64,000 nucleotides of DNA from a virus (Duplodnaviria > Heunggongvirae > Uroviricota > Caudoviricetes). The notes below the pieces were generated by a model. The model was not told the origin of the DNA and made no database searches. It saw only the letters and a list, made by a program, of their open reading frames with translations. The stretch covers positions 256,001 through 320,000 of IMG/VR virus record IMGVR_UViG_3300020045_008999. One strand, 5' to 3'. A program made the translations under genes and the position numbers. Below, piece after piece: positions 6,675 through 28,028 of the stretch (positions are counted from its first letter, which is position 1; each line of letters starts with the position of its first letter).

Positions 6675-7172
6675 TTGGGTTTTTTTGATTATTTTTGTTT
6701 AAATTATTTTTATATGGATAAAGTTAATTGTGTTTACCGACTTGGTTTATTTTTCAGTGAATATGTAGGAATGGATAATATTAAATTTCATTCACCAGAT
6801 TACCTATATGAAAAAATGGAAGTATTATTTAACATACCAGAGATGATATTAACACCATATGAACACGAATGGGGTTGTCATGAATTTATTATTAAATACG
6901 AAGGCACATGGGGGCCTATTACTGATACCTGTATTACTCGATTTATACTTTTTATATTCCATGCACGTGCACCTACTAGTGCAGAGAATTATATCAACAA
7001 CTTCGAAAAGTTTATATGTCCAATTCAAGATATAGTTTTAACTAATAACTATTTCCCAATGCATTTCAAAACTCTCAATTCTATTAATGAAATAATAGAA
7101 TTGTTAGAAAGATCTTCTGCCCACAAAAATATTATCCGATCATTATCAATAAAAAAACTTTTATCAAAATAA
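6675..7172 (+). CDS. Hypothetical protein with C-terminal RxxxIxxLL motif (probable start ATG 6714)
   Basis: ORF ends RSLSIKKLLSK. Confidence 0.7.
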   Translation: MGFFDYFCLNYFYMDKVNCVYRLGLFFSEYVGMDNIKFHSPDYLYEKMEVLFNIPEMILTPYEHEWGCHEFIIKYEGTWGPITDTCITRFILFIFHARAPTSAENYINNFEKFICPIQDIVLTNNYFPMHFKTLNSINEIIELLERSSAHKNIIRSLSIKKLLSK

Positions 7173-7466
7173 TTCGCTGGCTTGCTTAGTGGCTGATTAA
7201 AGACTAAAAATAACCAACACATACTAATCATTAAATTAAGAAAATACAAATGAATCAAGAAAATACAAATGAGCCATTAAGCAAGACTGCTGTTATAAGT
7301 CGGTTTTTATACGAAATGGCTGAAAAACATAATATTTCGGTAGATGGTATAGTAATAGGAATTGAAGAAATACATCCTAAAAGAGTTGATGGTAAAGTGA
7401 AATTACAGGTTATGAATTTAGATTTTCATAATTTAGAAGAGTTTTTGACTGAAAATGGCTTATGAA
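7173..7466 (-). mobile_element. Integron-cassette-like insertion 1 (attC-like hairpin 7171-7298 plus one ORF; slightly decayed)
   Basis: Arms CTTGCTTAGTGGCT (7181-7194) and AGCCATTAAGCAAG (7272-7285); GTTATAAG at 7292; near-complementary GGCTTATGAAC at 7457-7467. Confidence 0.65.
7250..7465 (+). CDS. Cassette-borne hypothetical protein
   Basis: ATG inside the hairpin loop; residues EPLSKTAVISR encoded by the right arm and GTT site. Confidence 0.75.
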   Translation: MNQENTNEPLSKTAVISRFLYEMAEKHNISVDGIVIGIEEIHPKRVDGKVKLQVMNLDFHNLEEFLTENGL

Positions 7467-7480
7467 CATACCAATTATCA

Positions 7481-26457: not shown

Positions 26458-26468
26458 TGGGATTTTTT
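26439..26468 (+). terminator. Intrinsic terminator
   Basis: AAAAAGTCCCATT-AAGT-AGTGGGATTTTTT. Confidence 0.7.
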
Positions 26469-26521
26469 GGTTAAGTCGTTTTTTATACATATATTTGTAC
26501 TATTAATCAAAAATATTTATT

Positions 26522-26785
26522 ATGGTAACTAAGAAAAATAAAACCGTGGAACCATTTCGTCCAATTAGTGTCATAGCAAATGAAATTGTAGCAGACTGGG
26601 GTGCTAATGTAAATTTTGGTGCGGTGCCTCATCTGAATGCGTTATTACAACTTGATAAAATTTCAGATTCGTATGGTCTAGATAGTGCTGAATTAACTAT
26701 CGCGTACTTTCTTTCAAATGCATCAACCTGGCGAGGTGAGACTGCCCGACGCATTAAGTTAGAGTTAAATCGAATGATCAAATAA
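26522..26785 (+). CDS. Phage hypothetical protein
   Basis: YFLSNASTWRGETARRIK motif; TATATTTG box 26490-26497. Confidence 0.8.
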   Translation: MVTKKNKTVEPFRPISVIANEIVADWGANVNFGAVPHLNALLQLDKISDSYGLDSAELTIAYFLSNASTWRGETARRIKLELNRMIK

Positions 26786-26868
26786 TGATTAAACGTTTGT
26801 CGCCTGTGGTAGTTGGGAAAATAAAGCCCAAAACACCGAATAATTACTAATCATAAAAACACAAAACA

Positions 26869-27072
26869 ATGTCAAAGTTAAAGACCGAAACCCAATTACC
26901 ACAAGCAATTGTTAGCCGTTCGGTTGATGATTTTGATTATACGTGTTTCAAATGTAAAACTTATAAAACAAATAATTTAGATAATTTATTCGACCATCGC
27001 CAATATTGTAAAATAAAAACAAATAAAATAAAAAAAATATGGAATCAATTAATGCAAATGCTATCTGTTTAG
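26869..27072 (+). CDS. Cassette-borne small C2H/C zinc-finger-like protein
   Basis: ATG in hairpin loop; YTCFKC...H...C. Confidence 0.65.
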   Translation: MSKLKTETQLPQAIVSRSVDDFDYTCFKCKTYKTNNLDNLFDHRQYCKIKTNKIKKIWNQLMQMLSV

Positions 27073-27248
27073 ATTGTGGAACTGCAAAAGAAAATCCTGA
27101 AAATGGTTTTTGTATGAATGGTCACGATAACTGGCTTGAAGAAATGGATAAAATAGAAAGATTTTCAGAGGCTTCAATTAAATTTAATAAAACAACTTCT
27201 GAATTGATGTTTCATATTCAGCAGAATGTTTCTATAACTGAAGGCTAA
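27039..27248 (+). CDS. Cassette-borne small Zn-ribbon protein
   Basis: ICLDC...FCMNGH; stop TAA lies within GGCTAAC. Confidence 0.7.
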   Translation: MESINANAICLDCGTAKENPENGFCMNGHDNWLEEMDKIERFSEASIKFNKTTSELMFHIQQNVSITEG

Positions 27249-27487
27249 CAATATACTTTGGTAGAAGCTATGGTAATTATTGAACAACCAAATAGCGATG
27301 GGTATATGTTCTTATAAAAGAATGTAATTTACCAGTAGACATTGTAAAAGCGTTGGTTAAAAATTATTCGGTATTTCTGGCCCCGATGAGTCCGGATAGT
27401 TGGGATTTTAAAATTTATAATAGATTGGGTGTTATAGAAAATAAAAATTGGTCACCAATTAATGAATGTACAATAAAAACAAATTGA
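27249..27487 (+). pseudogene. Remainder of gene interrupted by cassette 2 (first three codons at 26785-26793), with a later frameshift near 27303-27308
   Basis: ATGATTAAA + CAATATACTTTG reads MIKQYTLVEAMVIIEQPNSDGY; removing 2 nt from TATATG continues VLIKECNLPVDIVKALV to TGA 27487. Confidence 0.6.
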
Positions 27488-27493
27488 AATCAT

Positions 27494-27670
27494 ATGGGAA
27501 ATGTAGTAAAATTTAAAGTATCCGTATCTAATTTAGAACAGCGTAGTTTAAATAGAGTAAGGGAAATTAATTTGAAAAAATTAAATGATATGAAACTTCA
27601 AGGAAAGACTAAAGAAATGTGTTATCCTAAGTTTACCAAAATATTTGTAGATAATAACTATGGGACATAG
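27494..27670 (+). CDS. Small basic hypothetical protein (58 aa, below ORF-track cutoff)
   Basis: MGNVVKFKVSVSNLEQRSLNRVREINLKK...; overlaps next start. Confidence 0.55.
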   Translation: MGNVVKFKVSVSNLEQRSLNRVREINLKKLNDMKLQGKTKEMCYPKFTKIFVDNNYGT

Positions 27671-28016
27671 ACAAGAAATGACCAAAGAGCAGCGGATGGA
27701 CTGGGACCTGAGACAATATCAAGCTAAACTAGATGCGAATAAAGGTAGTAATTTTGAATATTGGTCTAGTAAGCACGATGAAATGATTGAGAATGATTGG
27801 GATTTATATATTTTCATAAATGATAGGAGGCAAAATATGGGATTGTCATGTGAAGAATATTATACAAATAGTGAATGCCAAGCAAAGGAGATAGTTGAAT
27901 CATTGAGATCTAATAATAATTTTGCAAGAATTATATCTGGATATAGACAAACGGTTCAACGAGTTAAATCATTTTCGATCATATATAAACCAAAGAAAAC
28001 GAAAAAATCCACCTAA
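27660..28016 (+). CDS. Hypothetical protein
   Basis: 118-aa ORF. Confidence 0.75.
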   Translation: MGHRQEMTKEQRMDWDLRQYQAKLDANKGSNFEYWSSKHDEMIENDWDLYIFINDRRQNMGLSCEEYYTNSECQAKEIVESLRSNNNFARIISGYRQTVQRVKSFSIIYKPKKTKKST

Positions 28017-28027
28017 TGGTGGATTTT
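28002..28027. terminator. Bidirectional intrinsic terminator
   Basis: AAAAAATCCACC-TAAT-GGTGGATTTT. Confidence 0.85.
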
Positions 28028-28028
28028 A

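Follow-up and report, generated by a model that had tools for sequence, protein, structure and literature searches.

Integrons count as devices of bacteria and as dependent on an IntI-specific domain, and the Bacteroidota have been described as essentially without them (PMC9024848; bioRxiv 10.1101/2024.07.02.601686): IntegronFinder 2.0 reported only In0 elements and one Salinibacter integron in Bacteroidetes (PMC9024848), and a 2024 preprint places Bacteroidota among the clades earlier found to be integron-free (bioRxiv 10.1101/2024.07.02.601686). Outside integron arrays, Loot et al. described single cassettes (SALINs) inserted at attG sites in bacteria (bioRxiv 10.1101/2022.09.11.507474), and Qi et al. 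(2023) described attC clusters without an integrase (CALINs) in virulent phages, including the Polaribacter phage P12002L (PMC9892861). Here we analyse in silico a 64,000-nt stretch of DNA, called the window throughout (positions 256001-320000 of a 596,785-bp IMG/VR phage record, 32% G+C), and a 455-bp unit (26794..27248) that interrupts a small phage gene, tgt. Our results suggest, with good confidence, that this unit is one integron-type gene cassette, placed in a secondary GTT site of tgt, most likely by a Xer-like recombinase of the host.

Two other systems resemble this locus in part. CTX-phi is a phage whose folded single-stranded DNA is integrated by the XerCD recombinase of the host, the whole phage entering dif. 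T4-type phages reportedly carry promoter/stem-loop cassettes (PeSLs), said to have been described by Arbiol et al. in 2010.

A probable integron-type cassette interrupts the phage gene tgt

The unit, whose breakpoints can shift within a shared AAC, comprises a folded site, two open reading frames (ORFs) and an inverse core. The attC-like site is 130 nt long (26788..26917, plus strand). It starts at the left junction ATTAAAC, with AAC at 26792-94, and continues with a 7-nt spacer (GTTTGTC, 26795-801), a 16-nt left arm (26802-17), an AT-rich (A-rich) loop of 73 nt (26818-90), a right arm (26891-906), the spacer AATT and the core GTTAGCC (26911-17); 14 of the 16 arm positions match. This core has its exact reverse complement, the inverse core GGCTAAC, at 27243..27249 on the plus strand, and complementarity between the two regions extends to ~14 nt. 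The first-pass annotation of the window had already picked out these elements, and all of them are present where it placed them. A covariance model built in this analysis on related hairpin sites, R1, scores the attC-like site at 79.4 bits (E 1e-12), with the window site within the training set. A search of Rfam matched no family to the hairpin.

The upstream gene, p87 (26522..26785, plus strand; 87 aa, phrog_13953 family), ends in a stop that overlaps the start of tgt (TAATG). The first three codons of tgt (ATG ATT AAA; 26785..26793, plus strand) are cut off by the cassette from codons 4 to 81 (27249..27487, plus strand), which continue at the first base after GGCTAAC with no target bases lost or duplicated. 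Removal of 26794-27248 joins ATGATTAAA to CAATAT and yields MIKQYTLVEAMVIIEQPNSDGYMFL followed by a stop, a total of 25 codons; past these, the rebuilt frame needs a 2-nt correction to reach 27487. The annotation had proposed such a slip at about 27305, and it is indeed required, its location being an extra TT at 27312-13. Because of this frameshift, tgt is a pseudogene.

An intact homologue of tgt was found. A word-indexed search with the open frame 27299-27484 gave no match, and an exhaustive profile search with the same frame retrieved a single short relative, P0014 (90 aa, 64% identity), in which 22 residues precede the matched part. Rebuilt without 26794-27248 and without the TT at 27312-13, tgt encodes 81 aa and aligns with P0014 end-to-end from the first Met (score 243). 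Immediately past the right junction, 21 residues (QYTLVEAMVIIEQPNSDGYMF) can be aligned with QITLDGAIKLIERLSDDEYIF of P0014 at a score of 31, which none of 5000 shuffles reached. The N-terminus of P0014 is MISNQ and its DNA, in contig L073, begins ATGATAAGTAATCAA; there the gene lies downstream of a run of tRNA genes, and no hairpin is found upstream of it. Thus, the claim that precise excision restores the start of the interrupted ORF is supported by an intact homologue that matches the rebuilt gene. It is also unlikely that an in-frame ATGAT.AA, coupled to the upstream stop, stands exactly at the left breakpoint by chance.

Three further observations were made on tgt. Its C-terminus (CTIKTN) is unlike that of P0014. 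A direct repeat matching at 17 of 18 positions (27007-27024 and 27467-27484; TGTAAAATAAAAACAAAT and TGTACAATAAAAACAAAT) is found at the 3' ends of cargo ORF 1 and tgt, each copy immediately preceding the ATG of the next gene; it may be due to chance in A-rich DNA or may be a second recombination scar. A 28-nt stretch of the hairpin loop (26826-26853) is 79% complementary to 27354-27381, inside tgt.

The cargo recurs in other contexts

The cassette carries two small, Cys-rich, overlapping ORFs. ORF 1 (26869..27072, plus strand; 67 aa, CxxC...HxxxxC) has its ATG within the hairpin loop, so that its residues 8-17 are encoded by the right arm and the GTT core, and a homologue is present in contig L072. 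ORF 2 (27039..27248, plus strand; 69 aa, CxxC-x11-C-x3-H) ends in a TAA stop inside the inverse core. Pfam, PHROGs and Atlas gave no function for the cargo ORFs or for tgt.

ORF 2 has ten homologues with 55-88% identity. Homologues occur in Bacteroidota assemblies, among them L077, a contig of a Flavobacterium metagenome-assembled genome (MAG); the cargo gene was not found in IMG/VR. In eight metagenomic contigs, which represent at least four different contexts, the DNA is 82-86% identical, the homology is restricted to the gene and it ends at ...TAAC every time; these contigs have nothing else in common with the phage. In every contig GTTAG..GTTCGGTT marks the left boundary of the unit and AACTGA....TAAC the right one, and its ends pair and covary: GTTAGCC with GGCTAAC in the window, GTTAGCGG with CCGCTAAC in most others, and GTTAGTGTT with AACACTAAC in L069. 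Between the left end and ORF 2 there is either nothing, a zinc-finger-like ORF (window and L072) or another gene of 71-87 aa. Judged from sequence, cargo that recurs in such varied contexts is a travelling cassette. We also considered whether the ORF past the cargo stop continues ORF 2, and rejected it, since all the homologues stop there and the longer ones extend N-terminally.

The site is conserved in structure

An independent MAFFT alignment of 28 related sites, with its consensus structure from RNAalifold, showed a stem of 14 bp, 13 of whose pairs have changed in both partners (compensatory changes). In this alignment 85.5% of the cells are paired, compared to 58% in shuffles, and 106 are doubly changed, compared to 38. 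The covariation score was 0.659 against 0.18 in shuffles (0/500 as high) and 0.11-0.18 in slid controls. The arms and loops differ in sequence from site to site and the pairing is kept; cores, spacers, stem and loop therefore follow the attC architecture, in which structure is kept rather than sequence. One stem pair is G.T, on the gene strand, in 27 of the 28 sites, a fixed asymmetry from which the polarity of the site can be read.

Joined in silico, the cassette ends fold on both strands into a complete two-helix site, made of a 14-bp core helix and an arm helix of 13-16 bp. The plus strand of this form reached -17.2 kcal/mol (z -2.4; 2/150 shuffles as low), whereas the integrated form gave z -0.1 in the same comparison and did not form the full site. 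The folding check suggested with the annotation thus succeeded for the joined ends and failed for the integrated site. As modelled, folding of the joined ends fits a circular or single-stranded intermediate.

Related arrays adjoin Xer-like recombinase genes

In the contigs with ORF 2 homologues, sites of this family occur in arrays. Each opens with nnnnAAC and a spacer of 5 nt (mostly GTTnn), after which come an arm (14-27 nt), an AT-rich loop (55-75 nt) and the second arm, and closes with 1-3 nt and GTTnnnn. As in integrons, the folded site is an imperfect palindrome that has an inner stem and the cores nnnnAAC and GTTnnnn, and the first bases of a cassette pair with the inverse core that closes it: at every array junction examined (L060, L064, L066, L069, L070 and L077), the GTTnnnn of one site and the nnnnAAC of the following one are exact reverse complements.

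In L077, a contig of the Flavobacterium-group genome G001, the array that holds the ORF 2 homologue has five to six sites. Its last cassette closes with CTCGCATAAC; TTATATATG comes next, and a gene for a 276-aa tyrosine recombinase is found 50 nt further on. R1 matches are present in 36/61 relatives of the L077 genome, with arrays reaching dozens of sites. In G001 (L077) and in three more Flavobacterium-group genomes (G027, G035 and G014) the arrays end in nnnnAAC followed by a T-rich, TATA-like sequence and no hairpin, and a Xer-like recombinase gene lies 50-1600 nt past this end; the enzymes of G027, G035 and G014, at the same array end, are 38-41% identical to that of L077. As in integrons, arrays therefore stand beside a tyrosine recombinase and an AT-rich, attI-like junction in these four genomes; this arrangement was not found in the phage. 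The array ends share AAC and then a T(A/T)(A/G)TATATA-like sequence, and those of G014 and G027 also have the motif TATACACCC.AAT..GGGTAGAT; from their sequence, these shared ends are candidate attI sites. Arrays of dozens of 130-nt sites lie at G035:C1:2308517-2324443 and 3739266-3768006 and at G027:C12:208068-226572, and one G035 array has no recombinase homologue adjoining it.

Two independent lines indicate that the order of a cassette on the cargo strand is hairpin, gene(s), nnnnAAC. The insert in tgt begins with the hairpin and ends in GGCTAAC, tgt resuming at the next base, and on the side of the recombinase the arrays stop at AAC with no hairpin beyond it. On the strand opposite to the cargo genes, this reads as the classical integron order of attI, cassette starting at G/TT, and attC, repeated (the slash marks the point of crossover). 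The annotation had proposed just such a minus-strand reading, from G/TT through cargo and nnnnAAC to the hairpin and a second G/TT, and it fits both the insertion breakpoints and the four chromosomal array ends. The classical reading of the plus strand, in which a gene is followed by its own downstream hairpin, was rejected on the same two grounds.

The L077 enzyme is a Xer-like protein. It scores 192.6 bits on the XerA model, below the cut-off, and 167 bits on the integron-integrase model TIGR02249, in two stretches and against a cut-off of 265. Its alignment to XerA/XerC-like structures is unbroken, while against IntI4 (PDB 2A3V) it aligns over 14-178 and 203-273 and skips IntI4 residues 182-248, with ~43 residues fewer. 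Thus, unlike integron integrases, the recombinase linked to these arrays lacks the extra domain specific to IntI. The IntI-like recombinase of the annotation holds as far as a tyrosine recombinase does adjoin the Flavobacterium arrays, and not as to its class. No TIGR02249 match was found in the phage.

Cassettes are scattered in the phage genome

The window site is not alone. In the phage genome (G000) 13 sites reached E<1e-4 with R1; they are spread over about nine places, and three of the sites were outside its training set. Note that profile and covariance searches were needed for this: a strict structural scan of the phage alone was insufficient, giving 5 sites with ~1 expected. Eight of the 13 sites have an exact inverse core 164-411 nt downstream, as have only 4% of control GTTAnnn sites (P 6.5e-9), and in five of these eight the inverse core coincides with the stop of an ORF started in the loop. 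The proposal that single cassettes are scattered in this phage is thereby borne out, eight of them having intact ends. Since two related phages of 634-642 kb gave only 1-2 weak R1 matches, the cassettes would be recent acquisitions of this phage lineage.

A second site of the family lies in the window at 7164..7298 (plus strand; 63.1 bits with R1), its left junction without AAC. A 71-aa ORF (7251-7465, plus strand) starts at a loop ATG at 7251, and the cassette (7164-7467) ends TTATGAAC at 7460-67, a degenerate form of the inverse core to GTTATAA. The stretch TACTAATCAT of its loop recurs in the loop at 26845-54 and in the site at 425.8 kb of the genome. Two or three sites lie close together at G000:C1:87417-88004 and 585463-586301, forming mini-arrays of one or two cassettes, and at the 585.8-kb and 586.2-kb sites AAC has been lost from the left junction.

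The region around the cassette also differs from that of related phages. The flanking proteins are 42-64% identical to those of five related huge-phage loci; at the nucleotide level, no relatives were found in the phage collection except 67-69% identity over one flanking gene. In four of the five loci the 186-aa and 214-aa flanking genes are directly convergent with 40-115 bp between them; the distance is ~690 bp in the fifth (L010) and 1570 bp in the window. The 1.57-kb block 26458-28028, whose small genes are all on the plus strand (p87, the cassette, tgt, a 58-aa ORF and a 118-aa ORF), is absent from all five loci and is, by this comparison of sequences, lineage-specific.

The tgt insertion resembles the SALINs. 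As with these, a lone site and its coding sequence lie outside arrays with no integrase or att site nearby, the target, G/TT on the minus strand of tgt, fits the G/WT rule of attG sites (bioRxiv 10.1101/2022.09.11.507474), and the cassette would in principle be excisable at the same point. It differs from them in that the recipient is a phage, a phage gene is split, the enzyme belongs to another family and the cassette carries its own start codon. CALINs are likewise integron-type sites in lytic phages, including a phage of Bacteroidota. However, R1 found nothing significant in Polaribacter phage P12002L (best E 0.034), which places the 130-nt family in a different subfamily, and Qi et al. report neither a mapped insertion into a gene nor a Xer-like enzyme (PMC9892861).

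Start codons in the loop and other explanations of the hairpin

In 17 of 40 sites an ATG in the loop opens an ORF that reads out through the right arm and the core, compared to 2/40 in the reverse control, and in 14 of these 17 the GTT of the core is in frame and read as Val. The window cassette is no promoterless ORF followed by its own attC: its first ORF starts in the loop and runs away from the site, antisense to the classical direction, as do the genes of many other cassettes. Unrelated cassette proteins share an N-terminal leader, ..Q..Q..V(S/M).(S/R)(V/L), because the right arm and the GTT core are translated, a peptide imposed by the recombination site. Examples are at 26869-26925 in the window, at 31 kb, 87.4 kb, 185.5 kb and 425.8 kb of G000, and in L064, L069, L072 and L077.

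These start codons, together with the G.T pair (G.U in RNA) kept on the gene strand, are what would be expected if the hairpin were an RNA structure of the 5' untranslated or early coding region that controls translation, the insertion itself being phage mosaicism by illegitimate recombination. We consider this unlikely, although it is the strongest of the alternatives. None of the eight chromosomal array sites examined starts an ORF in its loop, their genes having the classical orientation. Moreover, a role in RNA leaves unexplained the exact complementarity of core and inverse core chained along the arrays, the arrays that end at a recombinase gene, and the AAC breakpoints that are precise to the base on both sides. 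The hairpin may have a dual role, in RNA and in recombination.

The same stem-loops could belong to PeSL-like regulatory cassettes, shuffled as in T4-type phages by homologous recombination between promoter/stem-loop repeats. As with PeSLs, a stem-loop with start signals stands before each of the small accessory genes, in plastic regions of a large lytic phage; here the sites lie in a hyperplastic region absent from relatives. PeSLs, however, recombine through sequence homology, and no shared sequence that could mediate such an exchange was found: between sites only the pairing of the arms is conserved and not their sequence, no significant copy of the 721-bp region was found elsewhere in the phage genome, and tgt has only AAC in common with the cassette ends, which leaves no homology for recombination. 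This explanation is accordingly very improbable.

Marginally less probable again is a small non-autonomous transposon, similar to a miniature inverted-repeat transposable element (MITE), with AAC as a 3-bp target-site duplication. AAC is indeed present at both junctions, and the unit is short and without its own enzyme. The ends beyond AAC (GTTTGTC... and ...GAAGGCT) are not inverted repeats, though, and every AAC within an array belongs to an inverse core of 7-16 nt, complementary to the GTT core of the same cassette; AAC is therefore sequence of the element and not of the target. Neither the terminal inverted repeats nor the target-site duplication of an element moved by a DDE transposase are thus found.

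Points against the cassette reading and the responsible enzyme

Several observations weigh against our reading of the locus. There are 29 comparable inverted repeats in 1.3 kb, and the integrated hairpin, with its open loop of 73 nt, folds no better than shuffles (z -0.2 and -0.8), so the pattern in the window is weak evidence on its own; an origin of the pattern by chance, from the short inverted repeats of AT-rich DNA, which these numbers would favour, is nevertheless refuted by the comparative data, since the significance of the site comes from the covariation in 28 sites, the R1 matches, the pairing of core and inverse core and the intact tgt homologue. The part of tgt 5' of the junction is only three codons long. 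The junctions are compatible with a crossover at AA/C (G/TT on the opposite strand), as in integrons, but the shared AAC hides the exact bond and the crossover can be placed no more finely than that. The hairpin sequences beside homologous cargo genes are unalignable, so that the linkage of hairpin and gene rests on this insertion and on the four array ends. Finally, an empty-site allele, a circle junction and a second phage copy were not found. The predicted joints are ATGATTAAA to CAATATAC for the empty site and GGCTAA to CGTTTGTC for the circle; exact scans for the empty site returned nothing in metagenome or viral contigs, and since the occupied right junction, sought in metagenome contigs only, was likewise not found, the missing empty site is uninformative.

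The enzyme is a further difficulty. The annotation had noted the absence of a recombinase from the window, and no homologue of the array-type recombinase was found in the whole 597-kb phage genome either. The sole tyrosine recombinase of the phage (G000:C1:108068-108697, or L009:1330-1959; 209 aa, catalytic domain only) is only 22% identical to the array enzyme over 113 residues, and no 130-nt-type sites were found near its phage relatives in Cellulophaga and Maribacter phages. Being this distant, and its relatives having no sites nearby, it was dropped as the responsible enzyme. The proteins nearest to it come from Cellulophaga phage phi46:1 (37% identity), Maribacter phage Panino and Bacteroides phage BS-TP1. 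Since nothing homologous to the array enzyme is encoded by the megaphage, we infer that the Xer-like recombinase of the Flavobacterium arrays, acting in trans during infection, is most likely responsible. This would resemble CTX-phi, in which a folded hairpin site borne by a phage is used by a Xer-family recombinase of the host, with the difference that CTX-phi integrates whole at dif, whereas here small cassettes move into the phage.

Under the mechanism that we propose, the cassette ends would be joined, as a circle or as single-stranded DNA, and would fold into the two-helix site. A tyrosine recombinase would then exchange strands at AA/C, that is G/TT on the opposite strand, the partner being a secondary GTT site at codons 3-4 of tgt, and the gene would be split without loss or duplication of target bases. 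The 2-nt frameshift of tgt would have been acquired afterwards. Expression from the start codon in the loop, and a benefit from the cargo, may follow.

Discussion

The interpretation offered by the first-pass annotation proved largely right. The locus acts as a natural experiment, in which a recoverable empty site maps the breakpoints to AAC and ties the hairpin to its gene. The system differs from known integrons in its sites, which are ~130 nt long and have an AT-rich loop (55-75 nt) that is unstructured and a G.T pair, conserved, in place of bulged bases, and in its hosts, which are Bacteroidota. Full-text literature searches found no description of this Bacteroidota cassette system.

The broader proposal is an undescribed analogue of integrons, shared by Flavobacterium-type bacteria and their phages, in which a host Xer-like enzyme without the IntI domain would drop self-starting cassettes into GTT sites of a lytic megaphage; the phage would thereby acquire genes without arrays, occasionally at the cost of splitting one of its own. 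We regard this as evenly balanced between being right and wrong. The insertion shows that cassettes of this kind also settle away from arrays, here in a gene of a lytic 597-kb phage without the enzyme. With this locus and the recombinase-linked arrays of the Flavobacterium chromosomes it becomes testable whether a Xer-like enzyme can do integron chemistry on folded DNA, whether hosts and phages have one cassette pool in common, and whether the cassettes with a start codon in the loop are a class adapted to phages.

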